Positions 11,201 to 42,750 of a stretch of 64,000 nucleotides of DNA are shown here, piece after piece. Made by a program: the position numbers and the translations under genes. Position 1 is the stretch's first letter, and the number at the start of each line of letters is the position of its first letter. Source of the DNA: an uncultured delta proteobacterium (GTDB lineage: Bacteria > Desulfobacterota > Binatia > UBA9968); assembly GCA_963816145.1 (NCBI GenBank), contig CAWFJP010000030.1, forward strand, positions 128,001-192,000, in the 5' to 3' direction. The notes below the pieces were generated by a model, which saw only the letters and a program-made list of their open reading frames with translations, had not been told where the DNA came from and ran no database searches.

Positions 11201-11562
11201 TGCTGATCGGAGGTGTGATTGAGCACCAACTCGGTGATCACCCGCAGCCCGCGGCGGTGCGCTTCACGCATGAACAGTTTAAAATCCTTGAGCGTGCCAT
11301 AGTCCGGATGGATCTCGGTGTAGCCTGCGATATCGTAGCCGTCGTCGCGCAAAGGTGATGGATAAAAAGGCAAGAGCCAGAGCGCCGTGACGCCGAGATC
11401 GCTAAGATAGTCGAGCCTGCCGGTCAAACCCTTGAAATCGCCGATGCCGTCGGCGTTCCCGTCGGCGAACGCGCGCACGTGCAGCTCATAAATCACCGCG
11501 TCCTTGTACCAGAGCGGATTGTCGCCCAACGCAACCGTGGCCGTGTTTTTTTCCCGGTGCAT
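8215..11562 (-). CDS. treS: trehalose synthase TreS fused to maltokinase (Pep2/Mak)
   Basis: [34 protein letters not shown]; C-terminal [22 protein letters not shown]. Confidence 0.95.
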
Positions 11563-11567
11563 GATCC

Positions 11568-18629: not shown

Positions 18630-18646
18630 CTTCCCTACAATCGGAA

Positions 18647-22585: not shown

Positions 22586-22592
22586 GGCGTTT

Positions 22593-23894: not shown

Positions 23895-24068
23895 TGTTTT
23901 GTTGCCTGCGAGCACGTCGGCTTTCTCGCTCCATAGCCACGCTGATGGCTGCAGAATTGAGGGTTGAACAGGTTCTCAACTACGCGCCATTAGCGCGGTC
24001 GCGGGATTTCGAAAATTGCCGTGACCATCTGGAACCACCAATCCAACACAAAGTAATCCCTGACAGGC

Positions 24069-27016: not shown

Positions 27017-28081
27017 CTAAATCTCGCTAAACATGCATGAACGCAATGCCTCGATCTTTCTTTTGTAACAGCCCGGGTCGAGAAACCGCAGCGTGGCAGC
27101 GATGCTACTCAACAATGAATTGCCGTCCTGCGGGGTGAAACACACGCCGACCACTTCACGGTCTCCCTTGAGCGCGAGACTTTGCCGGACAACGACCGTC
27201 TGGTTCAAAATTCGACCGAAGAGTCCATGATCGCGCCCGAAGGAAAATACTGAAGCCGAAGAGCTCTTATTGGTCAAAGCGATTCTCGGGTTGGCCTCGA
27301 TCCGCTGTATGACATTCTCTAACGTCGTCGGCCGGCGCAACACCAGATCGAAATGAATCATATGCATATACTGGGTGTTTAACTTCAGTGCCGAGGAAAA
27401 TATATTCAAGTCCAGACCGCGGGTTTTAAACAGATAATGGGCGTCTCGTGCCTGATGTGTGCCAAAACGGCGATCATCATGTTTTCCGGCTTCGGGTGCC
27501 GCGATGAACGCGCCATCCTCGCTCAGATCGTTGGCCCGGCGCATACAAACAAAACGTGCCTCTGCCAAATTGTCTTCCTGTGCCGGCCCCAATGCGATGG
27601 TGTCGATTACTGCGGCCAAGTTATGCGTATTGCAACTCACCACCTGTACGAACCGGTCGCAATCCCTATCGAGTATTGTGTCGTTGATCCCGTGTGCATA
27701 CATTTTACCGAAGCCAAATTCACTGCCTTGGGCAATAAAGCCGCAGCCGTTGGTAGCGTAACGATCATAATATTTCCGCTTGTTTTCATTACCCGCGGGT
27801 GTGCAATCGATCACCACCTTCGCGCGCCCGATCGCATCCTCCGCTTCATAGCAGGGCTCCATGCCGAGGTCGCTGAACGTTCCCCAACGCTCCTTGTCGA
27901 CGCACAGTTTTGCGCCGTGGCCGGCCAGCACTGCCACTTTTGACCGGTCGGTCACCAAGGGAGTTCGTTTATGAAAGGTGATTTCGTCGATACCGAACGG
28001 CTGGCGAAAGTTGGCCAACAGGCCAATCAGCGGCTCGCCGATGGTTCCAGTTCCGACCACGTGGACGATGTTTTTGTGCAT
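27017..28081 (-). CDS. archaeal-type (class II) glyceraldehyde-3-phosphate dehydrogenase homologue
   Basis: Rossmann motif VVGTGTIG, IDCTP, IAQGSE, catalytic VVSCNT, RRAND; AGGAG RBS. Confidence 0.75.
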   Translation of the reverse strand: MHKNIVHVVGTGTIGEPLIGLLANFRQPFGIDEITFHKRTPLVTDRSKVAVLAGHGAKLCVDKERWGTFSDLGMEPCYEAEDAIGRAKVVIDCTPAGNENKRKYYDRYATNGCGFIAQGSEFGFGKMYAHGINDTILDRDCDRFVQVVSCNTHNLAAVIDTIALGPAQEDNLAEARFVCMRRANDLSEDGAFIAAPEAGKHDDRRFGTHQARDAHYLFKTRGLDLNIFSSALKLNTQYMHMIHFDLVLRRPTTLENVIQRIEANPRIALTNKSSSASVFSFGRDHGLFGRILNQTVVVRQSLALKGDREVVGVCFTPQDGNSLLSSIAATLRFLDPGCYKRKIEALRSCMFSEI

Positions 28082-28200
28082 ACGTGCTCCTGTCTCCGCT
28101 TTGCGCGTGACTTGCAGTTTTACATTCAGTTGTTTAGTACGCGGGCGCGAACCATCCCATGAATCTACGGTATGGGATCTTAGGTTCGGTGTGACGGATG

Positions 28201-28216
28201 AGCAACCGTTATGCCA
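28201..28216 (-). promoter_or_regulatory. sigma-54 promoter of the GAPDH-like gene
   Basis: minus strand TGGCATAACGGTTGCT. Confidence 0.78.
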
Positions 28217-28313
28217 ACACCTCGCCGCTTGGTATTCACTCGCTTTGAAACTGTTTTGAGTATCAGCTCGCCGATAAGAGTCGTCAATTCATTAGTGGGT
28301 TTCATACAACCCA

Positions 28314-28330
28314 GGAAGAGTTTTTCCTGC
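28314..28330. promoter_or_regulatory. putative enhancer (UAS) for a sigma-54 activator
   Basis: GGAAGAGTTTTTCCTGC, near-identical to 24175-24191. Confidence 0.55.
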
Positions 28331-28413
28331 GATTTTTAACTCTGTTGAATCTCCGTGATATCTCGGTACTGCGCGGCATGTAACCCACGAACAGCAGAAC
28401 TCAACGTTGCAGA

Positions 28414-28956
28414 TCATAAGACCGTGATGCCTTCCTCCCGATAACGGCGATGCATTCGCTTGACAAATTCATGTTTGTACAAAAAGTTGTCACCCAGTCC
28501 CCGGCCGCTCAATGTCACCGCAAAATCAACCCCCGAAGGATTGAACGCAGAAAAACGGACGAAGGTATCGCGGTGCGAATCTCGTTTGCATAGGGTTTTA
28601 AACATTTCTCGCACGACGTGGCAGGTTACCTGCTCGACTGCTTCCAGGTCGTTGTTGCAGTGCACCCTCAGCTGAACCTAGACCATCGAGTCGTTAGAGT
28701 GGCTGTGAAAGTTGCTGATGTTACTCTGCACGAGTTTGCTGTTGGGCACATAGACCGTAACTTGGGGAAGTTCCCTGATCTGCGTATTGCGCCAGCCTAT
28801 ATGCTCTACATAGCCTTCTTCCCCCGTTGAAAGTCTCACGTATTGGCCGACCTGCAGCGGTTGGTCGGCTTTGATGTATAACCCGGCAAAGAGGTTGCCG
28901 AGCGTGTCCTGAAGCGCGATGACGATTGCCAAACTGCCGATGCCAAGTGTCGTCAC
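28414..28956 (-). pseudogene. MscS mechanosensitive channel remnant (N-terminus deleted, frame broken near 28680)
   Basis: LGIGSLAIVIALQDTLGNLFAG, GYVEHIGWRNTQIR, VPNSKL, then HEFVKRMHRRYREEGI in another ORF. Confidence 0.8.
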
Positions 28957-29129
28957 GCGCCTTTGGTTGCAGCGGAGAATTCGACGGTCTCCTGGCCCTT
29001 GTCGGTCTTCAGCAAAATTTGTTTTTTGCCCTGATCGACCCTCGCCACGGTACCTTCCAGGAGCGCCGCGTAAACGGAAATCGTGGGAACAAACAGCACG
29101 ACGGCCGCAAATGCTAATAGCTTCCTCAT
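28953..29129 (-). CDS. small secreted OB-fold-like protein, probably truncated at the deletion junction
   Basis: AAGGAGG RBS; MRKLLAFAAVVLFVPTISVYAALLEGTVARVDQGKKQILLKTDKGQETVEFSAATKGA (58 aa); not in the ORF track. Confidence 0.65.
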   Translation of the reverse strand: MRKLLAFAAVVLFVPTISVYAALLEGTVARVDQGKKQILLKTDKGQETVEFSAATKGA

Positions 29130-29206
29130 GGTTTATCACCTCCTTTCTCTGTATGTTGTTGAGCGCGCTTAGAAGAAATCGCCGTGTCGCCCAGTGCGGT
29201 ATTTGC

Positions 29207-29221
29207 GCAAGGCCTGTGCCA
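29207..29221 (-). promoter_or_regulatory. sigma-54 promoter
   Basis: minus strand TGGCACAGGCCTTGC. Confidence 0.8.
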
Positions 29222-29498
29222 GATGCCCAGGGTTATTAAATTGCTATAATTTTCATGTCCATTGACGACCGACATGAATGCTCAACGGCTTTTGTAAGGG
29301 TTTTTCCGCTGAAGGAAAGTAGATATTTCCTGCGCTTGATTACCGATAACCGTGATTCACATCGACACTCGACCGCGCCTACATTTCGATGGTTCGCGCG
29401 CGATCATCAATTGCACTCCGTGAAACGCCCATTAAAGAGGTTATTCCCCTTGGTGATTTCGGTTGACCGGGGTAAGCCGCGGCGATTAATAAAAGTCC

Positions 29499-30074
29499 TC
29501 ACAGGTTCGATGGATGGCGAACTGAACCGGCAACGTTGCTCCAGAAGGAAAAAGAGATCCAGGCGAATAGAAGGGAATAGTTTACGATGATGGCCACTTG
29601 TAAAGCGTTCAGCTCGCGGTTGGAAAAAGTACGCCCCAGTGACCAACTCGCAAGTGCGGTCTGCCCGAGCGCGACGAGCGCGAGCGCAATGCGCCGCCGT
29701 TTTGCCACGCGACGCCACTCGATCTGAACATCGGCACTCTCGGATAGTTCACTGCCGATTGGATCGGCGGAAAATGAGTGTGTTCCGGTGCGTTCTTTAC
29801 GGTTAGCCAATCTAGACCAGAGCCGGTGCCACAGGCCGAGTTCAATTTTGCTTGGCGCCATGGGAATACGGCGTGTTTCTGGCGTCGCAAACCGGCTCGG
29901 ACAGTCCTGCCAATAGTTACTAAAATGGTCGCAGTTTTGACTGACCCCGTTCTCATGCTTGGCGCGGTGCTGCGCCAGAATCTGGTGTCGTTGAGACGCT
30001 TGAACGGAGCCTCCCAGTCCGCCTTCGGCAGCTTGTTCCGATTGTCACACTGGTTGATATCTAGATTCGCTCAT
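29499..30074 (-). pseudogene. opgH: OpgH/MdoH glucosyltransferase N-terminal remnant
   Basis: WRRVAKRRRIALALVALGQT...LLFAWISFSFW; catalytic domain absent; ATG overlaps the opgG stop. Confidence 0.75.
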
Positions 30075-30863
30075 GACTCCAGTTGATAGCTCCAAGTTTC
30101 GCTGAGCGCGCGATCACCGGCCTGAAGAAAAGCGCGCAGCTCCAACGGCTTCCCCTTGGGCAGCCTTACCTGGAAACTCAAGCGCCAGCCCCCGTTCACC
30201 GGGTTTCGCAACAGATTTTGTTGCACCAGGGCTTGCGCAGAAATAACCGGGCGCGCACATTCACAGTGCTCCGCTCCCCCGGTTGGACAATGAATGAAAA
30301 GGCGCCGGCGACGCTGGCACTGTCGAGCAACGCGTAAAGCTTTACTACACGAGCTTCGCGCGACGGCCGCGCCAACCAGAACTCCTTGAAATATGGAAAT
30401 TCTTCCCCGGTCGGCAAGCCGGTATCGATCGCCAAACCGCGTGCAGAGAGACCGAACACTTGACCTTTGGCCACCGCGCGAAAATAACTAGCGTTGGCAA
30501 AAACAACCACATGATTAAATTCGCTGTTTTTAAAAAACGGATAAGCGATGCGAAAACCGGCAAAACCCAGATCGGCTAGAATCCGATCGGCGAATTTGTT
30601 CTTACCGTAAGTGAAAAGTTGCTGCGAGAAAGGCAACGCTCGGCTAGCACCGGCATCGATGAGATTGATTCTAACGGTTTGGCTAAAATATGGACCGGTG
30701 CCGGGCGCGAGGGGGGGGCGTCATAACGGCCTCAAGGGTTCGAAGCTGATCATTGTCAGGCGTTCTTCAACCCCAACTCGCGGGTTTGTAAGTGTCGCTG
30801 ATATAATCTTGCTAATGCCTCAAGGTTTTCACAAAGTTAAGCAACAGACTTCAGCACAGCCAT
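30071..30863 (-). pseudogene. opgG: OpgG/MdoG periplasmic glucan protein remnant with large internal deletions
   Basis: LGFAGFRI, SYFRAV..GQVFGLSARGLAIDT...GEEFP.F.EFWL joined almost directly to the C-terminal GWRLSFQ...LSETWSYQL. Confidence 0.85.
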
Positions 30864-31473
30864 GACCGTTTTTTCCCTTTTCTCTCAGTCTAAGTTATAC
30901 CCCGTTCAGACCGGCGGTGCGACAAGCGGTTTCCATGCTTTCGTAATGTCCTAATCGGCTGGCCGTCGGTATGAAACAACCGAACCGATCAACAGACGCG
31001 GTCAAGAACTATCGGCGTTTTCGTAATTACGAAAGGCTGCACATGAGTCTGGGGGTACCACACTCCGTCCTTGGTGTATTTAAACAAGTACGGCCACAGT
31101 CCAGCTATTAACTTTCATCTGAGGCGGAAGAAGCGATTCGAAAACTTATCGTCTAACCAGCATAGCGCAAAGATAAACATGCTGCTCTGTGCCAATCGAG
31201 GGCCAGCTGGGATTTACCCCAGACCGGGCTTTTTTCATGCCTCCATTACGCATTTCAAGGGCGCGATTGCCATGCTGTGAACTTTGCCGGCTCACTATAT
31301 TTCTCAATTTTCTTTCTGAAAACGTTCCCACAATAAAACTTGAAGGTTCAAAACGATTTGGAATCAGCAGCGATCGGAACAAGGGTGTGCCGTCGAAACA
31401 CTTTTTGCCATAGTTCTTAACTTGAAAAAGCGCATGAGCTATCAACCCGAAGGGAGGGTATGGCTAATAACCA

Positions 31474-32775
31474 CTAATTTTGCTGGGCGTCCTTTTTCAA
31501 GTGCGCAGCAAGCGCTGCCAATTTCTCGGCAGGCAAACCGTCGAGCAGCTTTGCCAAATCGTTTTTCTGCCCTTGCGCGGCAACGGTAACCGACGGCCGC
31601 CGCTGCGAGAGATCTTTAAGATACTGTTCCATTGGAAAAATCGAAAGTCCCAATACGTAGTCCGTTGCGGCCTTGCTTGAATCCTCCGAAAGCCGGTAAA
31701 ACTCTGCTTCGTCGTTTAGCAAGTTTCGCAGTGTGGCATCCCACGCGTCTACGTTTTGGTCGGGAATCACCGGTATAGGAAGCCGGTTTTCGTCTCGGCG
31801 TTTCTCATAAGTCTCAATCCGGTGCACAGGCAAGGAGTAATCTACCCCTAGTTTTGCTTCGATTAGTCCACCCACATTACTTGCGAGCACAGGAATTCCT
31901 CGGAGCATCGCCTCTACCACAACCAGACCGAAAGCCTCGCCCCATAAGGATGGCACAAGCAAAATTCGCGTCTGTTTGAAAATCTCATCGATATTTTCGC
32001 TAGGCTGCAGAAGTGTTACATTTGGTAACAATGCACAAGCAGACCGATCGGCGGCATTTGTCGCCCAAGTGGGTACAGCGGCAAACATTACCTCTCGGAA
32101 TCTTCGTGCAAGCTCTAAAAAAATAGGCAGACCTTTAATATTGGAGGGATTGATCATGGTTACGTAGAGATTATCCCATGACCCCAGCGGTGGAAAGGGT
32201 GGCAATCCATAGACCGGCACGCACGCGACAAAGGAATCTAAGCCGCCCCATTTCTCGATATAACTTTTCAGGTATTTGCTGCTGGTTAGAATACCTGCAA
32301 CATCTTCTAGCATTTGCTTTTTGAATCGGTCGACCGTAAAGGCTTCCGGCCCGAACGGTAAAGTCGCCTGACTCTGGGATAAAAATAACGTACGTCGCGG
32401 ATCGATTTCAGTAGCTGCAGCGAGCAGCATATAAGTAGGATCTTCGGAGATGATAATCCAAGTCGGATCAAACTCCTGTATCTGGGCTTTCAAGTGCTCA
32501 TGAAGCCGTGCTCCATTGGCTAAAGCGTAAACTTTTACTCCATTACGGAAAAACACCTGACGGGATGGCGAGAGTTCCAGGATACTCACAGCAGATCTAT
32601 CGTGTCGATTGAGACGTGCAAACGGTTTCAACTCTTCGGCGGGCGTCCCCACTAGAGCGATTGCTCTACATTCATGGCCTCTTTCCGCCAATCCCTCTAA
32701 TAAACACCGACCCACTCGGCTGGCACCATTCAATACTGGCAGGTAGGGTAATTTTTGCGCAAATAGTATTTTCAC
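31474..32775 (-). CDS. GT4-family (GT-B) glycosyltransferase with C-terminal docking-like helix
   Basis: L..GLAERGHE, NPSNIKG, LLVPSLWGEAFGLVVVEAMLRGIPVLASNVGGLIEA. Confidence 0.88.
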   Translation of the reverse strand: MKILFAQKLPYLPVLNGASRVGRCLLEGLAERGHECRAIALVGTPAEELKPFARLNRHDRSAVSILELSPSRQVFFRNGVKVYALANGARLHEHLKAQIQEFDPTWIIISEDPTYMLLAAATEIDPRRTLFLSQSQATLPFGPEAFTVDRFKKQMLEDVAGILTSSKYLKSYIEKWGGLDSFVACVPVYGLPPFPPLGSWDNLYVTMINPSNIKGLPIFLELARRFREVMFAAVPTWATNAADRSACALLPNVTLLQPSENIDEIFKQTRILLVPSLWGEAFGLVVVEAMLRGIPVLASNVGGLIEAKLGVDYSLPVHRIETYEKRRDENRLPIPVIPDQNVDAWDATLRNLLNDEAEFYRLSEDSSKAATDYVLGLSIFPMEQYLKDLSQRRPSVTVAAQGQKNDLAKLLDGLPAEKLAALAAHLKKDAQQN

Positions 32776-32813
32776 TTCGGCCCTGATGAAATGTTCGACG
32801 TTACCACGCTTCT

Positions 32814-35015
32814 CTATTTTTTGCCGCTTATGCTGGTAAGGTCTTTTAATTCGTCCATCGACAAGGCATCCAGCTTATCCAAAATGGCGCCGATTTCCGC
32901 AGGATCAGATTGTCGGAACTGCTCCATAAGTATTGCCTTCGACAGAACCGCCACCGTAAATTCCTGAGTCACGAGCAACCGCGGTGAGAGTTCGACGTCA
33001 AAACTTGCTCGTATACGAGACAACACCTGCATCGCCAAGAGAGAATGCCCTCCCAAGTCAAAAAAATTGTCGTTTATGCCGATTTCCTCAAAACCGAGAA
33101 GCTCGGACCAGATGTTGGCAATTTCTTTTTCGACCGGGGAAGTGGGCGCGACGAATGGCACTGTGAGCTCAGGGCGCGCTCCGCCAAAAGATGAGACGGC
33201 CTCATGGATCGTATTCGGATCATTCAATGTCATGGCGATATGGATCAAGACGTCGTCCCCACCCTGGGGCCTGAATCGCGATCTCGAATCTTGTGGGATC
33301 ACCGGCGCTGATGAAACCCCGTCTGACCCTTCATCGTTTTGGCGTGTCACTTTATCCGGATCCATTTTATAATCGGCCGCCATACTGGCGGTAACTTGAT
33401 ATCGCCAACCACCCTCGCAGACTTCTTTTTTTGCGCTTACTAGGGACTCAAGAAAGTTAGCGGCCGGTTTGTTTTTGGACGTCGGCATGAACCGAAGCTC
33501 CACAGAATCCGCGTCCTTTTCTATGGCTATCGTTCCTAACCTTGCCAACATTTGGTGTTCGACTCCGCGCCCCATCGCGCGGCAGCTGAGCAAGAATGTA
33601 TCTACAATTACCGAGCGTGACAAAACCTGATAAATAATCACGCCGACGAGGCCATAGTCACCAAATCGATCACCAACGTGGACAATCAGAATTTCCTTGC
33701 CTTCCTGCTGCAAGTGTTGCAATTCTGATTCAGACCGCCGAATGGTAGAAACGTTAAATTGGTTCGTCCGGTAAGTGAGGTCGGCGACTCTTGCCAACGA
33801 ATGAGCAGTGGCGGGCGAAATGTCGATTTGTAGTTGGAGCTCTGCGAGAAATTCCCCGAAAGTGAGTGATCGTTGTCGGACCGAGTCGCGCTGAAAATGT
33901 TCTCGATAGAGTTCCGTTCGACGCTTATCTTCAGTGGTTACTTTGCCATGATCAAAAACCCACAGATGATCGAGAAACTGCGGGGTACATTCCGGATCCG
34001 GCGGCAGCTGAATCGCCAAAACGTCAGCGCAGTTCGCTCTTACCTCGCCGCATTCAACCGGGTCATCGTCGATAAGAATAAAGGCATCGAGTCCCAGATT
34101 CAATTCCTTTGCCAACGATCTTAGATTTTCGGACTTAGGCCTCCAGTTGATCCGCGAAGCAAGGAAATGATCCCGCTGCACGAGCATTCCAGGATGGGCG
34201 TCAAATACTGCCTGGACATCTTCCTCATTATTCTTGCTGCAAAGACAGAGAACTATGCCCGCGTCGTGCTGCCGTAGGACGAATTCCTGTAGAGCTTTCC
34301 TCGTCGAATCAATTTGGACGGCCGTCGGCCCATCTTCTCCGCACGCCCCGCCCCATAGAGTATTGTCACAATCGAGGGCGATGACTTTGTGAGGAAGCTT
34401 TTTCAATGCGTAAATCTTCCGCGCGATCATAGTGGCTAGAGCCGTAAAGTACACTGGTGTGTAAGGCACGTGAGCGAGCTTGTCCGTATAATCGTCGCGA
34501 CAGTCTGGAACGGGATAAAGCTTTGCCATATCTTCGTGATGCAGGACGTGTACACCGGCGATCTCTCCAGCCTCCGAGACCAGGTAGTGTTCCATCTTAG
34601 TGATGAAAGCATTTGCCTCCGAATCGGCAGCGCGATGCTGGGATGGAGGGCATAAACACACAAGAAATGTCGTGGGCACTTTCCCTACGGCAGCCCGGAG
34701 ACACTGAAGAAAATCACCGACGTTTCGCTCTATCTCCGATTCAAACGAACCCGGCGCGTCGGTCGCGGGTGCGCCCCCCCAGTCTTCAAGCCGAACCAGA
34801 GTGACGTCTATATCGTTATTGCTGCTAGATAACGAGCCAGGGTAGGTCAGGAGATGTTGGAACAGCTGCCCATACGGCGCAAACTGAATCCGGACAGGTT
34901 GACGTAATTCTTCCATCCAGAAGCGCAGCGGCACTTCGACCGAATCAGCGGTAAACGATGCCGCAATAGTAAGTGAAATTTGTTCGTCGGTCGAACCCAA
35001 AGCGTTTGCGTCCAT
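32814..35015 (-). CDS. FkbH-like glyceryl transferase/phosphatase fused to a phosphopantetheinyl carrier domain
   Basis: HAD motif LDCDNTLWGG, CSKNN, IDDDPVE, RTNQFN, DRFGDYGLVG, FLLSCRAMGR; carrier motif NFFDLGGHSLLA. Confidence 0.92.
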   Translation of the reverse strand: MDANALGSTDEQISLTIAASFTADSVEVPLRFWMEELRQPVRIQFAPYGQLFQHLLTYPGSLSSSNNDIDVTLVRLEDWGGAPATDAPGSFESEIERNVGDFLQCLRAAVGKVPTTFLVCLCPPSQHRAADSEANAFITKMEHYLVSEAGEIAGVHVLHHEDMAKLYPVPDCRDDYTDKLAHVPYTPVYFTALATMIARKIYALKKLPHKVIALDCDNTLWGGACGEDGPTAVQIDSTRKALQEFVLRQHDAGIVLCLCSKNNEEDVQAVFDAHPGMLVQRDHFLASRINWRPKSENLRSLAKELNLGLDAFILIDDDPVECGEVRANCADVLAIQLPPDPECTPQFLDHLWVFDHGKVTTEDKRRTELYREHFQRDSVRQRSLTFGEFLAELQLQIDISPATAHSLARVADLTYRTNQFNVSTIRRSESELQHLQQEGKEILIVHVGDRFGDYGLVGVIIYQVLSRSVIVDTFLLSCRAMGRGVEHQMLARLGTIAIEKDADSVELRFMPTSKNKPAANFLESLVSAKKEVCEGGWRYQVTASMAADYKMDPDKVTRQNDEGSDGVSSAPVIPQDSRSRFRPQGGDDVLIHIAMTLNDPNTIHEAVSSFGGARPELTVPFVAPTSPVEKEIANIWSELLGFEEIGINDNFFDLGGHSLLAMQVLSRIRASFDVELSPRLLVTQEFTVAVLSKAILMEQFRQSDPAEIGAILDKLDALSMDELKDLTSISGKK

Positions 35016-35052
35016 TACCTAATACCTCAAATCCGTTTTCGCAAATCTACAA

Positions 35053-35802
35053 TTAGTCTTTGCGTCTGTTCGGTATCTCGTTGAGCCGCTTGGCTAATAT
35101 GTCCATCAGGCGTTTATAGGAAAGAGGCGGCGCCAAAAAGGAAAAGTCCCGGCTACCGATAGATTCAAACCGAGGCTGCTCGCTAGCGATAGCCGTTTTC
35201 TCAAATTCCGATTTCCATACTTCAGCAAGTTCGGGAAAGCCCAATTTCTGTGCGATATTGCATAAGATGTTTTCGCCCGAATTAAAATAGCCAGCTTGGT
35301 CGCGTTTCTTCACGCCGCAGAAGAGAATGCCCAGATCCAAATAATCTTCCAGTTCGTTCGCCAGACGAATTAAAACAACGTCTCTCTCAAACTGGCTCAG
35401 AGAATCCAACTGAACGCAGATGCTCTGTGCAACCTGCTGGTTCCACCTTAACTCGTTGTACCTTGCGACATACTCTTCCACTTCCGGGCCTACGGCGGCT
35501 CTTACATAGTCTTGTTTTGCAGACGAGAGACCTTGTTTGTTGTCGCCAAAATCACCGCTATCGTACGCGGCATGAAGGAGTCCGGCGGCTATTATGCGTG
35601 GCGCTGAACGAACACTCGTCAGGATACTCGCCGTGCCAACCAAGTGGGCAATGAAGGTTTTCCCGGACCCTCTGAAGCGTCCGGTGAAAAGGGTCATTGC
35701 GAGCTCGTAAGACTTTTTGACAGCAGCTATTTCCTGTTCATCGTACCCGAGGTCATACATCTGATTGAACAGCTGAATATTCGTTTGTGCAAAGCGATAC
35801 AA
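35053..35802 (-). CDS. HD-superfamily (RelA/SpoT/Mesh1 hydrolase-like, DUF6817-type) protein with substituted metal ligands
   Basis: AQTNIQLFNQ, RGSGKTFIAHLVGTASIL, AAGLLHAAY, IRLANELED; likely TTG start at 35802 after AAGGGA. Confidence 0.7.
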   Translation of the reverse strand: MYRFAQTNIQLFNQMYDLGYDEQEIAAVKKSYELAMTLFTGRFRGSGKTFIAHLVGTASILTSVRSAPRIIAAGLLHAAYDSGDFGDNKQGLSSAKQDYVRAAVGPEVEEYVARYNELRWNQQVAQSICVQLDSLSQFERDVVLIRLANELEDYLDLGILFCGVKKRDQAGYFNSGENILCNIAQKLGFPELAEVWKSEFEKTAIASEQPRFESIGSRDFSFLAPPLSYKRLMDILAKRLNEIPNRRKD

Positions 35803-35813
35803 TTTGTTTCCCT

Positions 35814-37298
35814 TCAAAGTGTATGTGCCGATGTTAAATACGGGACGACTCCACTGCGTTCCAACTGAGGCACACTGACGACCTTGCCGGTCACGGCCTC
35901 GACCAGTTTCACCGGCGTACTGCCAAGATTCACGTCGCATAAATCACCGGCGACATAGGCGCTTCCTGCCAAAGGTGCAGAAATCGCGGTTGGCGCCGGT
36001 TGTACCACCTTCCGCAGCGCCGCTGCACTGCGCCAGTTTCCGGTATCGACTGCCAGCCAACATTGATATTGCTGCGGCGATGGCTCAAGAGTCAGGAACG
36101 CGAACGGTCTTATTTTGCGCAGCGGCTCGGCTTCTCTGGTTTCTACACAAACCAGGGTTGGATCGTTGGCTCGGCCTCGCGAGAGAGGGCGGATAACAAC
36201 GCCGGATCGACCCTCACTGGCTTGACGTAGGAGCTGAGGAAGTTTTCCAAAGGTTTCCTGTGCGTCCAAATTCGGCCAAGCCTCGATGGTATCGCTTTTG
36301 TTCTTGACGATGCTGAGATCGAAGCGGTCTCGATCGACCGATAAGAACATCGCCACCATGAGCTCGGCTTGCTCACGAGGCAGCTCGGGTTGATAGCCTG
36401 GCTTGCCATTGGGTACCGTTAGCCCTGTCAGAAACCGACGATGACCGCGGGCAAATTTGATGATCGTTTCCTCGCTCTCGGGCACCGCCTTTTCACTAAA
36501 CCAACGCAACGCGGACACACCCCATTTTGCATTGAAGTGGCGCACCGTTGCTAAGTTCCAGGCCTCGCTCCAACGCAACATAAAGTAGGGAACATCGAAC
36601 CATTCATAAGGAGGCGGTGGCACATAACTAGTAACTGCGCGCGGCTCAATATAAACCGATCCTCCTGCCTCACGCACAGCCATGCCAATGTCGATATGTT
36701 CATGCAGGCTTAAAAGTTTTTCGTCCAGCGGACCGAGACGTTGAAGAATCTCAGTACGTATAAGCATGCAATGGAATTCTGCATAATCCCAAGCGCGTCG
36801 CTGCAGACGATCCTGAACTTGGTCGAGCTTCGTTTCGAAAAGATATTGTTCGTCATACAGAATTCGCTTGCCTTCATGTTCCTTGACGTGCAGAGTGCCG
36901 CCAGCCATGTGAATGGTCTGTTTTTCCAGCTCTCCAATGAGGTAGAGAGGTCCGACGATCCAGGCATCGGTGTCGTTTGCACATCGGACAAGAGCCGCCA
37001 ACCAGCCGGGCCTCACCAGCGCGTCATTATCGATGAATACCGTGTATTTGGTCTTCACTTCGCGCCAGCCAAGGTTGCGAGCTTGGTTGGGAGACAGATA
37101 TCGATCCAGCGAAATTACCCGGAAGCCTTTTCGCTGCGATTCCTCCTTAAGGAATGTTCGCAAGGGCCCCGGGCTGCCTGCGTCGATGTATATTAAGTCG
37201 AACGGAAAGTCTGTGTTTTCATAAATATTGATCAAAGATTGTTGGGCGAAGCTAAATCGTTCGCGAGGAACCACCACGATGGTGACCTGGGATTCCAT
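35814..37298 (-). CDS. GT2-family glycosyltransferase fused to a degenerate RepB DNA-primase-like domain
   Basis: GT-A motifs VTIVVVPRE, NQARNLG, VFIDND, EHID; C-terminal VVIRP...FLTLEPSPQQYQCWL...LAGS. Confidence 0.8.
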   Translation of the reverse strand: MESQVTIVVVPRERFSFAQQSLINIYENTDFPFDLIYIDAGSPGPLRTFLKEESQRKGFRVISLDRYLSPNQARNLGWREVKTKYTVFIDNDALVRPGWLAALVRCANDTDAWIVGPLYLIGELEKQTIHMAGGTLHVKEHEGKRILYDEQYLFETKLDQVQDRLQRRAWDYAEFHCMLIRTEILQRLGPLDEKLLSLHEHIDIGMAVREAGGSVYIEPRAVTSYVPPPPYEWFDVPYFMLRWSEAWNLATVRHFNAKWGVSALRWFSEKAVPESEETIIKFARGHRRFLTGLTVPNGKPGYQPELPREQAELMVAMFLSVDRDRFDLSIVKNKSDTIEAWPNLDAQETFGKLPQLLRQASEGRSGVVIRPLSRGRANDPTLVCVETREAEPLRKIRPFAFLTLEPSPQQYQCWLAVDTGNWRSAAALRKVVQPAPTAISAPLAGSAYVAGDLCDVNLGSTPVKLVEAVTGKVVSVPQLERSGVVPYLTSAHTL

Positions 37299-38823
37299 GT
37301 TGAAGACTCCTACTGATCTAAACGAGAAATACCGCCGAGGTTACTTTGACAATTTTCCATGACGACAGTTCCGTCTCGCCAAAACGAACATAGGATTGTG
37401 GTGTTGTACGCTGATTTAGTACACGATTTGACACATGCCATTTTTATGCTTTTTAGATCCGTGAGCAAGGAGAAAGAGCTTCGAATAAAGTACATCACCC
37501 CGATGTAAGACTGCAAACTACGTTGACTCTAAAGTGCTAGGTGAGAAAGGACTACGGCTCACTGCTCAAAGCGAGCGTTAACTCTAGGAATCTAGGTCCG
37601 TAACGCAGAATTACATGGAAATGGAGGACGATTCATGGCGTACTCGTAGGGATAAATCTTAGCGCCGAATCATACGGAGAACGGCCTGAACAGCCAATCG
37701 GAACGCCTTAGAGAGTGAATAGAAGCAAGTTGCCGGACTTTTGTCCGCGTAATAATGACAAGCCCCAAAAACTACCGATGAAAGCGTCACTCAGGGCTTG
37801 GTTTCGTTGGGCTTGAGGGTCGCGCTTAAGTTCTAAGACGATTCACCCACGATCGATTTTAGAATGGCCTTCAAGAGGTCCTCTAGTTTCCACTCCGTGC
37901 TGCCAGTTTGCCGCAACTTTACCGAAACTAATTGCTGGTATGTGTTTTCGAACGGAAATTGAGTGAGCGTGATGTAACTGTAGGCGCTTGAATTCCTTGA
38001 GTTGACTACCATAGGTTGCACACAGCCCGGCTACCACTCCGGAACTGAAAATCCTCATGTCGCTGATCGATCATGCGCAATGGCGATTGTGTCTTTTATG
38101 TTTCCAGTGTGATTCCAGATGAAGTTAACGGAACCAGAGAAACGGTTCCATCCTCATGCTTATTTACCTCGTTTTTGTCGGTTTTTTCTAGTCGAGTTAT
38201 GTTCTGGAGTTGGCTAGTGTTTTTCGTAATCAGTGGATCGCCGGTTCACCTTCGGCGCATCGCTCCAGATTTTATCGATGATTTGGAATCCCGTCCGATG
38301 AGATGATTTGGCTTTGCGGGCGCATTGTCCGTGTTCAGCCCGCTTTCGCGCACTCAGCGGACCGATCGGGACGAAGACTTCAACTGCAAAAGACTTGCAG
38401 GATATTCTGAACAGGTTACGCGGGACGCCTTACAACTTTCGAAAGCACAACGGAAGCGTTCGCAAGTCCAGCGGCCAACGCAAGATATCCGAGCTCGGCA
38501 TATCCTCCCGACACCGACCGACTGGAGTGATTGCATACGAATTAGCGAGCTCTTGGGAGTGAGACACCATGCTATCAGCGAGCCGAGGGGGAATAGGCTT
38601 AGCGAGGCAAGTATTTTATTCTGGCCGGAGCAAGCGAGCATGGTGAATCGAGACTAGCCCCTTCCCCCCTTTGTCAACAACGGATGCGCACATTGCGCGA
38701 TGTCGGGTTTTTGACAGTTAGTTTGTTGAAAACACCGAAAGCATGTACAAACTGGATAAACGTGAATGCAGTAAAATTGCAGAGTTAGAACCATCGTGAT
38801 TGATGCTTAAAGGGTAACGCAGA

Positions 38824-38868
38824 ACTCTCCCGTCGGGAACACGGGGTCGAGTCCCGTTCGGACCATCA
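38824..38868 (+). other. 3' half of a tRNA-Glu-like gene (degenerate), candidate attachment site
   Basis: CTCTC...GGGAAC ACGGG-GTCGAGT-CCCGT TCGGACCA: T-arm hairpin plus 3' acceptor strand; no complementary 5' acceptor strand upstream. Confidence 0.6.
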
Positions 38869-38998
38869 AGTTTGCTTCCCTTGCCTAAAACGATGCAACA
38901 GCGGCCACACGATCGCGCATCTCAGCTCGGGGCTGTTCCGATGAAGCGCCGGTTGCGCGAATGCAATCTCGACGAAGCGCGGCAAGAAGAAGAACTTC

Positions 38999-40228
38999 AT
39001 GCTTCTAAACACTACCTTCCGCGCCTTTCGCCACCGCGACTACTTGATCTACTGGCTCGGTCTATTTCTTGGCCATACCGGCACATTGGTGCAGACCACC
39101 GCGCAGACCTGGCTGATCTTTCAACTGACCCATTCGCCATTTTATCTAGGCCTAGAGGGACTCTGCCTGGGTTTACCGCGGGTGCTGTTTTCCGCCTTCG
39201 GCGGCGCCGTGGTCGATCGCACGGACCTAAAAACCATTTTTGTCCTGACCCAAATTTCTTTCGTCGCGATGGCGCTGTTTCTCGGCGTGATGCGTCATCT
39301 CGGGCTCATTCAGGTATGGCATCTCCTGCTGGTCTCCGCCCTCACCGGCTTTCTGGTTTCGTTCGAGCAACCGGTGCGCCAGTCGATCCTACATCATCTT
39401 GTGCCACGCGAAGATCTGCCCAACGCCGTCACGCTCTATCAAATGGTTTTCAATGGCTCGATGCTGTTCGGACCTTCGATCGGAGGTTTGCTGATTCCAG
39501 TGATCGATACCAAGGGCTGTTTCTTCCTAGCCACCATCGGCAATCTGCTCGTGTTAGTCACGATATTTCTCATCCGCATACCCGCCACGGAACCGTCGGC
39601 GGCCAAAACCAGTATTACGCGCGACATGATCGAAGGTCTTAAGCTCGCGTGGAAAACCCCGATGTTTCTGGCGCTTCTAACAGTCCTCGCCGTCGTCAGC
39701 TTTTGCACCAAACCCTATACTCAGTTCATGCCGGTGTTCGCGCAGACAATTCTCAACGTCGGCGCCCCCGGTCTCGGCATGTTGCTCATGGCGCCGGGCG
39801 CCGGCGCGATCTTGGGCGGGCTGACCCTCGCCTCGGTGCGCCGTTTTCCTAAACCGCCGCGTTTGCTGTTTGGCCTAGCTGCCGGATTCGGCATCTGCAT
39901 CGTTCTATTCGCCACCTCGCGCAGCTTTCTCTTGTCGCTGGTATTCTTGTTCTTCGCCGGTAGCTTTCAGACCACATTCCTATCGTCGGTCGCCACGCTG
40001 CTACAATTCCACACCAACGAGCACAACCGCGGTCGTATCATGTCGATGTTTGGTCTGATCAATCGCGGCCTCGGCCCAATGGGCAGCTTTCCCTTCGGAC
40101 TGATCGCGACCTGGATTGGCGCCCCTTGGACTGTGGCGATCTGCGGCGCGCTCACCATCAGCCTGGTCGGCTATGTGGTTAATTACCGTGCAAGTTTACG
40201 TGACGCCAAAGCGGTCGGTGAGAATTAA
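38999..40228 (+). CDS. MFS transporter
   Basis: about 12 TM; GGAVVDRTD, FEQPVRQS, RGRIMS. Confidence 0.9.
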   Translation: MLLNTTFRAFRHRDYLIYWLGLFLGHTGTLVQTTAQTWLIFQLTHSPFYLGLEGLCLGLPRVLFSAFGGAVVDRTDLKTIFVLTQISFVAMALFLGVMRHLGLIQVWHLLLVSALTGFLVSFEQPVRQSILHHLVPREDLPNAVTLYQMVFNGSMLFGPSIGGLLIPVIDTKGCFFLATIGNLLVLVTIFLIRIPATEPSAAKTSITRDMIEGLKLAWKTPMFLALLTVLAVVSFCTKPYTQFMPVFAQTILNVGAPGLGMLLMAPGAGAILGGLTLASVRRFPKPPRLLFGLAAGFGICIVLFATSRSFLLSLVFLFFAGSFQTTFLSSVATLLQFHTNEHNRGRIMSMFGLINRGLGPMGSFPFGLIATWIGAPWTVAICGALTISLVGYVVNYRASLRDAKAVGEN

Positions 40229-40469
40229 CTATTGCTGGGAATCATCCCAAGCGATAGCCATCCATGCCGAAACAGCAAATCTGCCAGGGCGAACGAATGT
40301 TATGCTTCAGCGATAGCCAAAGGATCTCGACTTTGTACGCAGCAGAAAAGACGATTTTGTTCGTTGACGATCAAAATGACACTTTGGCAAGTTTCGCGAC
40401 TGCCGCACGGACTCAAAGCAAGGCGAGTCTCTCTTAAAACTACTGATTTAGAGTGGCACCGAAGTCGGC

Positions 40470-41021
40470 CTAAATTTTTCCCTGTGACCTCAGGTGTTCG
40501 ATGCGCTGGCGCACGATCTCACCGAGATCATTTGTCTCCAGCGCATCCGGGACTTGAATTCCTTCGGCGCCCAACTGGGTGAGCTTCTGATTGAGCGCGT
40601 CGAGGCTCGCGCGGATGCGCGCATGCTCTTGCAGATATTGCCGGCATGCGAGGATGTTGTCGTCGACCTCTTCGATGCACTTGCTCAAACGACGGCTTTC
40701 CTGGCTGAAAGTTTGGCGCAGATGATCGACGTTAGCTTGGATAATCTGCTCCTCGACGGGGCGGATCTGCTTGGCGATCTCGCTCTTCATGTCTTGCAAG
40801 GCTTGGAGCAAGCGTTCGTATGATTGTTCTTCCCTCATGAGATCCTCCGGCATCTGGATTTTGACTTCTCTCGTCGCGATGTAGTGCTGCGCCAGTGATT
40901 CCGACACCCGCCGTTTAACCAACACCAACGCCGCCTGGGTTTCATGAATGCGCTCGTCCACCAGGGCTTCGTCGCCGATGAGTTTAACCAACTGTTCCAA
41001 GGGTGCGGTGGCAAGTGTCAT
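40470..41021 (-). CDS. coiled-coil hypothetical protein
   Basis: long helical E/Q/L-rich ORF; start 41021 (alternative 41075). Confidence 0.7.
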   Translation of the reverse strand: MTLATAPLEQLVKLIGDEALVDERIHETQAALVLVKRRVSESLAQHYIATREVKIQMPEDLMREEQSYERLLQALQDMKSEIAKQIRPVEEQIIQANVDHLRQTFSQESRRLSKCIEEVDDNILACRQYLQEHARIRASLDALNQKLTQLGAEGIQVPDALETNDLGEIVRQRIEHLRSQGKI

Positions 41022-41259
41022 GGTTCGATTGGGTTTAACGGACAGTGTTACAGTCCGCCCCAGCTCAAGAGCCATGTATTATCCAGTCGCAGGTGAAACT
41101 GCAAGCATCACCAAATCTAAGGTAAGAATACGAAATACTTGATATTTTAAGAGGTAAAAATCAAAGATAAAGTCGACCTTAACGCACCATCTCGGGTCTC
41201 GTTGGCGCGCATTGACAACGAATGTAAGACGGTCTGGTGCGAGCGCTGGCGCGGCTCGA

Positions 41260-41595
41260 TTAACGTTTGTTTTCAGTAAGCTGGCGCTTCCAGCCGAGGG
41301 TACGCGCCTTCGCGCCGACTTCTTCGGCTTCGGCGATCAGACCCTTCTGTTGATAGAAGATTGACAGGCTCGTATAAGCCAGTTCATCGTCCGGCGCCGC
41401 CGCGATCAAACGTTTCGCGATGTCGATGGCTTGATCAAGTTTTTCTTGGTGCGAATAAGTCATCGCCAGGGCATGCAAAGCGTCGGCGTAATTGGGATCT
41501 TCATCGAGGGCGCGCAAATAAGCGGCAACGGCATCGTCCAAGTGATCCTGGGCGAAATACTCCATCCCCTGATTGTAAAAATCTTCTTTGTTCAC
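41260..41595 (-). CDS. tetratricopeptide repeat protein
   Basis: A...Y..AL..DPNYADALHALA, AYTSLS TPR pattern. Confidence 0.85.
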   Translation of the reverse strand: MNKEDFYNQGMEYFAQDHLDDAVAAYLRALDEDPNYADALHALAMTYSHQEKLDQAIDIAKRLIAAAPDDELAYTSLSIFYQQKGLIAEAEEVGAKARTLGWKRQLTENKR

Positions 41596-41628
41596 TGGGG
41601 CAGTTAGTTGGGCGATTTTGCGCCGAAA

Positions 41629-42750
41629 TTATGAAGCTGCCATGGACAGCCGTTGGACCTGTTCAGGTCGGCATTGCTGCAGCAAGACTTTTTTGAGCAT
41701 CGTCGGATTGACCGGCTTTTTGAAGATGACACCCTGCAAGCCTCCGAGGCAGCTGCGCTTGATGATGTGGTCTTTGTCGTAATTGAATGCCGTCATCAAG
41801 ACGACCGGCAGTCCGGGCATGTTTTTCTTGACGGTTTGGTACAGCTCGTAACCGTCCATGTCGGGCATGACGACATCGCTCAACACGACATCGAAGCGGT
41901 GCCGCCTCAACCACTCCATGGCATGGACTCCGGAGGCCGCGGTCTCGATGCAGCAGCGCTCCGACTCCAAGAGCTGCTTGAGCGACTGGCAGATGCTGGC
42001 GTCATCGTCGACGACCAAAATGTTCAAGCCGCTTAATGGATAACACGCGTCGGGCGACGGCCGGGCACAAGGTTTGTCGCTGGCTGCGGCATCGACATGG
42101 AGATCCGTCATCATCTTGCCGTCGAGGTACTCGGTCGTGCCGTACTCGCCCTCTTCGGCCATTTTGGCCATGCGCGTGGTGATATCTTGTATTTTGCGCA
42201 CCTGAGACGCCACGGAGTCGAGCCGGTCCGACTCGACAATGTAGTCTTCGTCGGTGGCGACGCGCTCGACATACTTCTTCATCAGTTCGGTCTGATTGAC
42301 CAGGACTTCCAAACTATTATTGATCTCGTGGGAAAGCCCGATGGCGATCTCGGCGAGCGTCACCAGTCGGTCGCGCCGGCGGATCTCGCGAATATCCTTA
42401 GCAAAACCAATCGAGCCGATCTCCTGACCCTGATCGTCGTAGATGATCGACGCAGAAATTGCCACTGGCATCTGCTCGCCTCGCTTGGTCTTGAATATGG
42501 TTTCGAAGTTTCTCACCCGCCCCCTGCCTTCGCCATCGCTCGCACGCATCGCCGCCATCACTCGGCGCGCTTCTTCGAGATTGGGATAGATCTCCAGGAC
42601 GTTTTTGCCTAAAACCTCGTCGAACGAAAAGCCGAGATTCTGCCGCGCACCGTCATTGTAGAAAGTAATCGTACCGTGACGATCGACCGAAATAATAATG
42701 TCGGGACAGCTCTCGACGAGCTTCTGAAAGTATTGAACCGGCAGGGCCAT
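41629..42750 (-). CDS. PAS-HisKA-REC signalling protein lacking a HATPase domain
   Basis: PAS/PAC, H-box LSHEINNSL, short EYLDGKMMTDL tail, REC with VVDDD/SDVVMP/KKP. Confidence 0.85.
   Translation of the reverse strand: MALPVQYFQKLVESCPDIIISVDRHGTITFYNDGARQNLGFSFDEVLGKNVLEIYPNLEEARRVMAAMRASDGEGRGRVRNFETIFKTKRGEQMPVAISASIIYDDQGQEIGSIGFAKDIREIRRRDRLVTLAEIAIGLSHEINNSLEVLVNQTELMKKYVERVATDEDYIVESDRLDSVASQVRKIQDITTRMAKMAEEGEYGTTEYLDGKMMTDLHVDAAASDKPCARPSPDACYPLSGLNILVVDDDASICQSLKQLLESERCCIETAASGVHAMEWLRRHRFDVVLSDVVMPDMDGYELYQTVKKNMPGLPVVLMTAFNYDKDHIIKRSCLGGLQGVIFKKPVNPTMLKKVLLQQCRPEQVQRLSMAAS

Follow-up and report, generated by a model that had tools for sequence, protein, structure and literature searches.

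A candidate FkbH-primed glycosylation cassette whose glycosyltransferase carries a RepB′-primase-like domain

Here, we describe a four-gene cassette on the minus strand (positions 31474-37298) of a 64-kb stretch of DNA, hereafter the window (G000:C30:128001-192000), from the 7.8-Mb genome, rich in nonribosomal peptide synthetases (NRPSs), of an uncultured delta proteobacterium of the lineage Binatia. The cassette encodes, in this order, a family 2 glycosyltransferase (GT2) fused to a domain resembling the primase RepB′, a DUF6817/HD_4 protein, an FkbH protein fused to a peptidyl carrier protein domain (FkbH-PCP), and a family 4 glycosyltransferase (GT4). Its invariant core across related loci is the pair made up of GT2-RepB′-like and FkbH-PCP; DUF6817, the second glycosyltransferase, and an NRPS module are facultative. 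FkbH enzymes move a glyceryl unit from 1,3-bisphosphoglycerate to a carrier thiol and are known for providing polyketide and peptide assembly lines with glycerate-derived units. In this cassette, the glyceryl-carrier protein appears tied to a glycosyltransferase that captured a DNA-primase fold, often without an assembly line. We rate the cassette as an FkbH-primed, carrier-dependent natural-product pathway, unusual in its exapted primase fold and in offering oxygenases of the SmaX type a second context. That it is a working, horizontally acquired unit building a small glycosylated molecule on a carrier protein is, in our judgment, an even bet, and this carrier-dependent glyco-modification, already proposed by a sequence-only reading of the window, is still the best reading of the locus.

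Each of the families is known individually. Open-access text contained no description of a GT2-RepB′-like fusion as the partner dedicated to an FkbH carrier, nor of the four-gene combination, which the earlier reading had likewise failed to recognize as a described pathway; subscription journals lay outside this coverage. The cassette and its parts are as follows (L, P, C, and X numbers are our designations for loci, proteins, contigs, and sequencing runs).

35814-37298, minus strand: GT2 with RepB′-primase-like C-terminal domain, 494 aa, P0001 (PF00535, 48.6 bits)
36444-37298, minus strand: GT-A catalytic domain, residues ~1-285 (VIA-align, Foldseek)
35844-36383, minus strand: RepB′-primase-like domain of the archaeo-eukaryotic primase (AEP) type, residues ~306-485, without the helical C-domain (profile, VIA-align)
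35053-35802, minus strand: DUF6817/HD_4 protein, 249 aa, TTG start, candidate SmaX-type mono-iron oxygenase (Pfam)
32814-35015, minus strand: FkbH with peptidyl carrier domain, 733 aa, P0003 (TIGR01686, PP-binding)
34401-35015, minus strand: FkbH N-terminal domain, residues 1-205, no Pfam family (conserved in 12/12)
33438-34391, minus strand: FkbH/HAD-IIIC core, residues 209-526 (TIGR01686 209-526, TIGR01681 210-326)
32946-33125, minus strand: peptidyl carrier domain, residues 631-690, with the GGHSL serine and a conserved 'LS.DE...L' tail (PF00550)
31474-32775, minus strand: GT4, 433 aa, GTG start, P0004 (PF00534, 49 bits)
31492-31539, minus strand: GT4 C-terminal helix motif, GLPAEKLAALAAHLKK, of a kind found ahead of starter condensation (C) domains (comparison with relatives)
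37299-37836, minus strand: leader/promoter region, conserved noncoding, traveling with the cassette (nucleotide homology to L096, L097, and L095)

Linkage of the core pair across genomes

We compared 79 loci from reference genomes and 37 from metagenome contigs. Twelve of the reference-genome loci encode a GT2 with the C-terminal extension that holds the RepB′-like domain, and FkbH-PCP follows in 12/12, either directly or after DUF6817. Metagenome contigs contributed 24 loci with the extension; FkbH-PCP follows in 17, six end too early, and L099 is without it, so that 17 of the 18 metagenome loci with sufficient flank have the gene downstream. The DUF6817 frame of L099 continues into a TrmB-like C terminus, a junction that points to a deletion. 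GT2 relatives without the extension do not lie beside FkbH, save in L063. The loci L024-L090, mostly cyanobacterial, hold an extension-less GT2 clade with two to three tandem paralogues 2-5 kb apart and FkbH not nearby.

The facultative genes vary around this core. DUF6817 stands between the pair in L012, L014, and L017; GT4 follows in L013, L016, L018, L021, L022, and L023; and all four families occur together, in other arrangements, in L018 and L022. Further variants are L112, where the order is GT2 with extension, DUF6817, a second GT2 with extension, and FkbH-PCP, and L120, where GT2 with extension, DUF6817, and GT2 run up to the contig end. P0374 (1816 aa; C-PCP-thioesterase [TE], GT2, FkbH) was considered as a Rosetta-stone fusion and set aside: its matches to P0001 and P0003 stop partway, the sequence between the matches is unrelated, and we take the protein to be a read-through of frameshifted or neighboring genes, which counts only as an instance of gene order.

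The genome itself carries two more pairs of extended GT2 and FkbH-PCP (41-49% identity; tblastn, whole genome), making three copies in total. One (C5:140564-144351; locus L009, G000:C5:133001-152000) is followed by an EryCIII-like GT1, and its neighbors (an ApbA-like reductase, the EryCIII-like GT1, DUF5924, and an NMT1-like binding protein) are common to L015, L019, and L020. The other (C14:269252-272952; L010, G000:C14:262001-281000) is a bare pair with EF-P upstream and CarD and IspD downstream. Across 400 other genomes of the phylum, the GT2 extension gave one weak match (E 5.6e-4, two internal stops), i.e., effectively none. GT2 relatives numbered at least 1101 at E<=0.001 (8000 candidates scored), with a usual full length of ~490-500 aa; they come from soil and wetland metagenomes and from Acidobacteriota, Chloroflexota, proteobacterial, and other lineages, and most of the 120 listed are 480-520 aa long and cover 96-100% of the query.

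NRPS parts were sought by Pfam scans of the flanks and by tblastn with C, adenylation (A), and TE pieces. The sequence-only reading had named, as a finding that would refute its proposal, that homologous loci are always parts of larger NRPS or polyketide synthase (PKS) clusters. The outcome is split. Of the 13 FkbH-linked genome loci, 7 have NRPS parts beside the pair, fusions of a glycosyltransferase to a C domain included:

L012: three A-PCP proteins and a thiamine diphosphate (TPP) enzyme
L013: phosphopantetheinyl transferase (PPTase), C-A-PCP-TE, and A-PCP
L015: C-A-PCP-TE
L016: GT4-C-A-PCP fusion, 1515 aa
L018: C-PCP-TE
L022: A-PCP
L063: GT1-C-PCP-TE fusion

The remaining 6 of 13 (L014, L017, L019, L020, L021, and L023) have no NRPS parts within 9 kb, and none of the three copies in this genome has C, A, or TE within 20 kb, so that the loci do not always belong to such clusters. 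Among the metagenome loci, seven have NRPS parts (L100, L101, L103, L104, L105, L114, and L121), and related loci have NRPS parts, a PPTase, and exporters as neighbors. On this gene content, the NRPS module is facultative, and a kinship with NRPS biosynthesis is clear.

Domain architecture and conserved residues

All four domain calls of the sequence-only reading, the 'primase-like' one included, were borne out. The GT2 protein unites the Pfam match, a GT-A fold, and a DxD-type metal/nucleotide motif. Residues 1-280 of its AF2 model (pLDDT 88.9, pTM 0.90) align to GT-A enzymes, best to ppGalNAc-T1 (Z 20.3, root-mean-square deviation [rmsd] 4.1, 250 aligned; VIA-align), and the D-N-D motif at residues 90-92 reads D/E, N, D in 115/115 relatives. 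The PF00535 domain is followed by ~230 more residues that, searched alone, match nothing in Pfam (E<=10). A profile of 23 family members nevertheless matches RepB′ of RSF1010 (3H25, E 1.2e-7; 3H20, E 3.4e-7), and model residues 306-485 superpose on 3H20 with Z 13.3 and an rmsd of 3.6 Å over 161 aligned residues (VIA-align). Foldseek with the full model returned GT-A matches only, the primase match surfacing only in the exhaustive aligner. The RepB′-like domain alone retrieved 131 representatives in exhaustive phmmer; 27 of these, scanned with Pfam, comprised 6 GT2 proteins, 17 RepB primases, several of which carry the helical C-domain PF22448, and 4 proteins of no family. A precomputed PF16793 (RepB_primase) match is given for 7 of the 120 GT2 relatives listed.

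The domain thus combines the RepB′/AEP fold with the signature motifs IRP, E(T)xP..YQ.W, and LAG. The catalytic acidic pair D77-D78 of RepB′ is not retained, reading E386-T387 in the window protein; the D77 equivalent is acidic in 107/115 relatives and the D78 equivalent is Asp in 49/115. PF22448 gave no match, and the protein ends at residue 494. Because the acidic pair is not kept and the helical domain is absent, we take the domain to be a domesticated primase fold that appears constrained for a nonpriming role. Since it strictly co-occurs with FkbH-PCP, the most economical and most likely interpretation is that it serves as a recognition or docking module rather than as a primase. A complex prediction of FkbH-PCP with residues 265-494 gave a score of 0.00 that, run without controls, says nothing on binding.

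FkbH-PCP matches TIGR01686 at 296.6 bits (2.1e-88; cut-off, 146.65) and PF00550, NRPS-type, at 50.9 bits (1.8e-13). D215, D217, T219, and C478 are invariant in the 12/12 relatives aligned, and we take D215/D217 (DxDxT) and C478 to be the catalytic residues. Equally invariant in the 12 is the phosphopantetheinyl serine S658 in GGHS(658)L, which marks a cognate carrier, and all 12 end in a conserved 'LS(D)DE(V)..L' tail. The N-terminal domain alone matches nothing in Pfam (E<=10). The Protein Data Bank match 3slr covers residues 203-355 only, i.e., the HAD core, and has ~215 residues ahead of it.

The DUF6817 protein, single-copy in this genome, scores 41.2 bits on PF20680 (cut-off, 25.2) and 31.3 bits on HD_4 (cut-off, 27.2), and its fold resembles the Rel/SpoT hydrolase domain (Foldseek E ~2e-5, TM 0.5-0.6; phmmer E 1.5e-5). 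It is not a classical HD phosphohydrolase: H77-A78 stands in place of the HD dyad, and N149 takes the position of the Asp in the LADRLHN motif. The HA and Asn positions presumably correspond to the Mn ligands in Rel. H53, H77, A78, and N149 are invariant in 120/120 database relatives, as are thirteen more positions (Q6, T7, Q10, R44, K48, T57, Y80, F85, E109, W120, E150, E152, and D156), and the H77-A78/N149 pattern recurs in 23/23 locus-derived relatives. This invariance across the 120 relatives argues against a decayed enzyme. The sequence-only reading had called the protein a pseudo-HD fold, apparently inactivated; that view gives way to one in which the family-wide H..HA..N set would correspond to the metal triad of an active oxygenase, SmaX. 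SmaX is reported to match only DUF6817 and HD_4 by HHpred (99.7% for DUF6817), to be an Fe(II)-dependent oxygenase with one iron bound by H39, H63, and N143, and to cleave a C-C bond in an alpha-hydroxycarboxylate, turning beta-hydroxy-Asp into aminomalonate, and it has an Fe/2-oxoglutarate (2OG) hydroxylase partner; homologues are reported there from clusters for ribosomally synthesized and posttranslationally modified peptides (RiPPs) and from 52 NRPS clusters (PMC12186529). The correspondence of H53/H77/N149 to this 2-His-1-Asn triad was drawn through the Rel alignment and not from SmaX itself. Shared family, missing Asp, the H/H/N set, and a 24-residue His-His spacing make the cassette protein a probable active oxygenase of the SmaX type.

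DUF6817 also keeps company with GT2 alone. Adjacent GT2-DUF6817 pairs without FkbH occur in eight loci, and in L025 a second GT2 lies behind the pair. Candidatus Nitrotoga P0376 and P0378 are true fusions of ~950 aa in the order GT2, TPR repeats, SEC-C motif, second GT2 of the cassette clade, and DUF6817 domain, with the H, HA, and N positions intact in P0376. P0377, from the same taxon, has similar precomputed domains with DUF6817 not listed.

GT4 belongs to the GT-B group 1 families of Pfam (PF00534, 49 bits; PF13692, 46 bits) and scores 29.1 bits on PF20706 'GT4-conflict' (cut-off, 26), below the generic GT4 score. It shares 50% identity with the GT4 portion of the L016 GT4-C-A-PCP fusion, and no C or A remnant was found downstream of it, even at E<=10. 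Nine of the 10 stand-alone GT4 relatives compared end in an 'LS.E+LELLA.LL+K' helix, which in the window protein reads GLPAEKLAALAAHLKK; the L018 tail is without it. In the L013, L018, and L104 modules, the same helix stands at the N terminus, ahead of the C domain, and in the L016 and L063 fusions it stands at the junction. We infer that this helix and the FkbH-PCP tail might dock with each other and so deliver the loaded carrier to GT4 or to a C domain. The one GT4 paralogue in the genome (42% identity, same C-terminal helix motif) lies on C31 (L011, G000:C31:236001-252000), preceded by an A-PCP-C-A-PCP NRPS and by a 414-aa protein without a family assignment, and the GT4 clade thus seems NRPS-associated even without FkbH.

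The cassette as a unit and its surroundings

The open reading frame (ORF) list gives four minus-strand frames at 31474-32775, 32814-35015, 35053-35940, and 35814-37298, identical to the four tightly spaced genes of the sequence-only reading. As listed, the DUF6817 ORF overlaps the GT2 gene by 127 nt. Its true start is the TTG at 35802: a Shine-Dalgarno-like AAGGGA precedes it and the resulting 249 aa equal the length of the relatives and of the database cluster P0124, an exact match. With this start, the intergenic gaps are 11, 37, and 38 nt, and the four intact genes have the look of a cotranscribed unit. The AT-richness already remarked on amounts to 51.1% GC versus a genome mean of 56.4% (standard deviation, 2.05; 5.8-kb windows), within the lowest 2.1% of 7656 genome windows. 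Equally sound was the claim that assembly-line genes are missing. There is no C, A, or TE within 20 kb (tblastn, E<=1e-8), no ketosynthase (KS) on the whole of contig C30, and no further carrier domain in the window, all C30 matches lying outside 128001-192000, so the cassette does not itself make up an NRPS/PKS assembly line. Dozens of carrier domains are spread over the genome (whole-genome scan). Its two PPTases are on C17 and C1, neither in the window, and one would thus be available in trans.

Upstream, the leader retains homology to L096, L097, and L095 as far as 37812-37836, where it ends. One promoter-like site lies in it (37697-37669), a count within chance expectation, and the promoter/terminator scan as a whole did not exceed shuffled expectation. 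No Rfam family was found in 28000-42000 (E<=1) and no convincing repeats flanking the cassette in a repeat search. The RNA run X20 yielded three small contigs inside the FkbH and GT2 genes (7/30 bins covered), a weak hint of transcription from which operon structure is not readable.

The genes recur together elsewhere, as the sequence-only reading had required, not only as the pair but also as the whole. L096 has the exact four-gene order, complete, at 85-94% amino acid identity; L097 has the same order, complete except for a GT4 cut by the contig end; and L095 and L098 are consistent with it up to their contig ends. Nucleotide homology to L096 spans window positions 31422-37836, i.e., the four genes and the ~540-nt leader, and stops on both sides. 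The flanks differ, with a Tex-like S1/HHH gene downstream in L096 and the end of a PKS module (ketoreductase-acyl carrier protein, KR-ACP) ~1 kb upstream in L095. Ratios of nonsynonymous to synonymous substitution (dN/dS) against L096 and L097 are 0.16-0.25 for all four genes, and 19 DNA runs from soils and wetlands, the work of at least 17 studies, contain half or more of the words of the cassette stretch. The same order in different flanks, together with these ratios, the low GC content, and the rarity in the phylum, argues for a selected, horizontally acquired mobile cassette rather than a relic.

The remainder of the window is less distinctive. At 8215-23915 (minus strand) lie ordinary genes outside the cassette for a TreS-maltokinase fusion (1115 aa), GlgE, two alpha-amylase-family proteins, GlgX/isoamylase-like and GlgB-like proteins, and GlgC. 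The stretch 28100-31450 is low in GC, with broken genes and several ORFs of no family, among them an MscS beta-domain fragment (28678-29139) and a 146-aa MdoG fragment (30196-30636) that matches positions 85-219 of 478 only. An inverted pair (28111-28140/41076-41105; 30 nt, 70% complementary) brackets a 13-kb region of 51.6% GC, and a weak transposase-like fragment (PF21804, E 9e-4; 40470-41075) abuts one arm; the two may represent a degraded composite element or chance. One contig of run X1 (depth, 2.0) joins 39806 to 30372 with three extra letters between, as expected if a 9.4-kb cassette-bearing segment existed in circular or tandem form, or if the contig were an assembly chimera. An MFS_3/EntS-like exporter (38999-40228, plus strand), divergently oriented and separated from the cassette by 1.7 kb poor in genes, is probably not part of the unit, since it lies outside the block common to L096 and L097. 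Approximately 3 kb downstream of the L018 cassette, a CAP12/Pycsar-type TIR effector gene (L018:16512-17687) was taken as incidental.

Proposed route, alternatives, and known systems

In the route that we favor, FkbH-PCP would transfer a glyceryl unit from 1,3-bisphosphoglycerate to form a thioester on its own phosphopantetheinylated carrier, a step predicted because the protein belongs to the FkbH family and its catalytic residues are intact; work on OzmB and FkbH established this chemistry. GT2, the dedicated partner, might then glycosylate a hydroxyl of the tethered glyceryl, with the RepB′-like domain serving in recognition or docking. The DUF6817 protein, as a single-iron oxygenase, could tailor the intermediate or the sugar, e.g., by C-C cleavage next to a hydroxyl, and GT4 may dock on the C-terminal tail of the carrier via its helix motif and attach a second sugar. 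Release might be hydrolytic, setting free a product of the glycosyl-glycerate type, or oxidative, or the intermediate might pass in trans to a C domain, a transfer for which about half of the related loci would use a co-encoded one-module NRPS (C-A-PCP-TE). The product is most likely a glycosylated, possibly oxidatively trimmed, glycerate-derived small molecule.

Several points weigh against this route. The donor sugar, the acceptor hydroxyl, and the choice between tethered and released acid as the glycosyltransferase substrate are assignments that we infer, and the proposed docking is modeled on the docking helices of NRPSs and PKSs. No release enzyme (TE, C, or hydrolase) is encoded in the window. 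DUF6817 is optional, being missing from the C5 and C14 copies and from many loci. Neither a peptide precursor nor the Fe/2OG hydroxylase partner of SmaX is present, no Fe(II)/2OG hydroxylase gene being found in the cassette or the scanned window neighbors, and the positions that would correspond, by spacing, to the SmaX substrate residues differ (G45, S82, and D153). Two loci with GT2-DUF6817 and without FkbH suggest other surroundings for the pair: L080 is polysaccharide-type, with Bac_transf, WecG, a flippase, and sulfotransferases, and L036 has two GT4 genes and a sulfotransferase. Because of such polysaccharide-type loci and of the GT2 pairs and fusions without FkbH, the substrate of DUF6817 may be the GT2 product or a sugar rather than glycerate. 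Lastly, the RNA signal may be DNA carry-over.

A bolder version of the same route, which we think quite unlikely, has the catalytic domain of a plasmid primase exapted as an adaptor that lets a GT-A enzyme work on a glyceryl thioester of the FkbH carrier, with DUF6817 cleaving C1-C2 or C2-C3 of the tethered alpha-hydroxy acyl unit for a TE-free, oxidative release of, e.g., glycosyl-glycolate. If true, oxidative release would be a new off-loading logic for carrier-protein pathways.

Among alternatives to the favored route, the cassette might instead supply glycosyl-glyceryl-S-PCP as a starter for an NRPS or PKS elsewhere in the genome, yielding a glycosylated N-glyceroyl peptide or polyketide; we regard this as possible if rather doubtful. 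Starter C modules and glycosyltransferase-C fusions beside the pair in related loci, the KR-ACP module end near the cassette in its closest relative (L095), the pre-C-domain helix motif retained by the window GT4, the abundance of carrier domains in the genome, and the NRPS adjoining the C31 GT4 paralogue are all consistent with it. They have to be set against the absence of C, A, and TE around all three copies and of a C/A remnant behind GT4, the housekeeping surroundings of the C14 bare pair, and the 6 of 13 genome loci without NRPS parts; nor was a cognate acceptor module identified.

A different division of labor would make glyceryl-S-PCP an acyl donor: the glycosyltransferases would build a glycan or glycolipid, and the glyceroyl group would be moved to a sugar hydroxyl or amine. 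FkbH-like proteins do occur in glycan loci, and the GT2 clade and DUF6817 are found in the polysaccharide-type loci L080 and L036. However, the window and the 13 FkbH-linked genome loci have no acyltransferase, initiating transferase, flippase, or polymerase, and the strict coupling of the RepB′-like extension to FkbH-PCP fits direct action on the carrier better, which leaves this explanation improbable. A shade less probable again is a sub-case of the favored route in which hydrolysis frees a compatible solute of the glucosyl- or mannosyl-glycerate type. Diglycosyl-glycerate solutes consist of glycerate and two sugars, and the window has trehalose/alpha-glucan genes (TreS-Mak, GlgE, TreZ-like, and others) and MscS and MdoG fragments. 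Because the cassette forms an island with different flanks in its relatives, these neighbors weigh little; moreover, known solute routes need no carrier protein, the NRPS parts, docking motifs, and exporters point to secondary metabolism, and GpgS and MpgS rank only 49 and 44 among the GT-A structural matches (Z 12.5-12.8 versus 20.3 for the top match).

An inactive relic of a larger NRPS/PKS cluster is very improbable. Broken genes do surround the cassette (MscS, MdoG, and transposase fragments), NRPS parts are frequent in related loci, and L099 attests to a truncated version, but four intact frames with catalytic residues, the same boundaries in different flanks, the dN/dS values, and the recurrence in soil and wetland DNA speak for maintenance of function. 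Anti-phage defense or nucleic acid modification by glycosyl-glyceryl transfer onto DNA or nucleotides, which the sequence-only reading had entertained, can hardly be right. In its favor are the single-stranded DNA binding of the RepB′ fold, the frequent action of HD folds on nucleotides, and the GT4-conflict score. Against it, PADLOC returned 0 matches for 4/4 proteins (E<=0.01), GT4 fits the generic family model better (49 bits), the RepB′-like domain has neither a conserved second primase Asp nor the helical C-domain of primases, the HD-like protein is without phosphohydrolase Asp residues, and the related loci are of the NRPS type (NRPS parts, PPTase, exporters) rather than defense islands.

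If the favored route holds, the cassette would represent a compact, transferable means of making glycosylated hydroxy-acid building blocks, on a core pair that is common (at least 1100 GT2 relatives) and widespread in soil bacteria. It would also place the newly discovered single-iron HD oxygenases of the SmaX type in a second biological setting, probably with a second class of substrate. Both the two-gene and the four-gene versions are small enough for direct reconstitution.

Known systems resemble the cassette in parts. Glyceryl-loading enzymes of the FkbH/OzmB type (TIGR01686), which serve methoxymalonyl-ACP, tetronate, and glycerate-primed NRPS pathways, share the HAD-IIIC core, the DxDxT aspartates, the SCR cysteine, and a carrier domain with the cassette protein. 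The latter differs in being fused to an NRPS-type PCP and in always having the GT2-RepB′-like gene before or after it, in a setting without KS, FkbI/K-type oxidoreductases, or O-methyltransferase and often without an assembly line. Papers on aeruginosin and suomilide reportedly name FkbH together with glyceric acid. PtmJ of the pactamycin pathway is said to glycosylate an intermediate bound to a carrier protein. Myxoglucamide assembly is reported to have glycosyltransferase-dependent early steps (PMC13638107). As in the cassette, the glycosyltransferase is thought to act in both during assembly and not after release; they are not known to have FkbH, a primase-like domain, or glycosyltransferase-C fusions, and the enzymes are seemingly unrelated.

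For the DUF6817 protein, the nearest solved folds are the (p)ppGpp hydrolase domains (HD_4) of Rel, SpoT, and SAH, from which it is set apart by HA for HD and Asn for the LADRLHN Asp in 120/120 relatives. SmaX is closer in kind: both proteins are DUF6817 and HD_4, lack an Asp after the second His, have His residues 24 apart (H53/H77/N149 here; H39/H63/N143 in SmaX), and are found in natural-product clusters, NRPS clusters included. The His-Asn spacing differs (72 versus 80), and the cassette type pairs with GT2 and is fused to it in Nitrotoga. RepB′ of RSF1010 (PDB 3H20/3H25; PF16793) shares with the cassette domain a common fold and the motifs IRP, ETSP..YQ.W, and LAG, and bona fide RepB primases are its next relatives. 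Unlike RepB′, the cassette version sits behind a GT-A domain, is without PF22448, has E-T in place of D77/D78, and belongs to a biosynthetic operon rather than a replicon; if our reading is right, it would be a clear case of the fold of a replication enzyme taken into metabolism.

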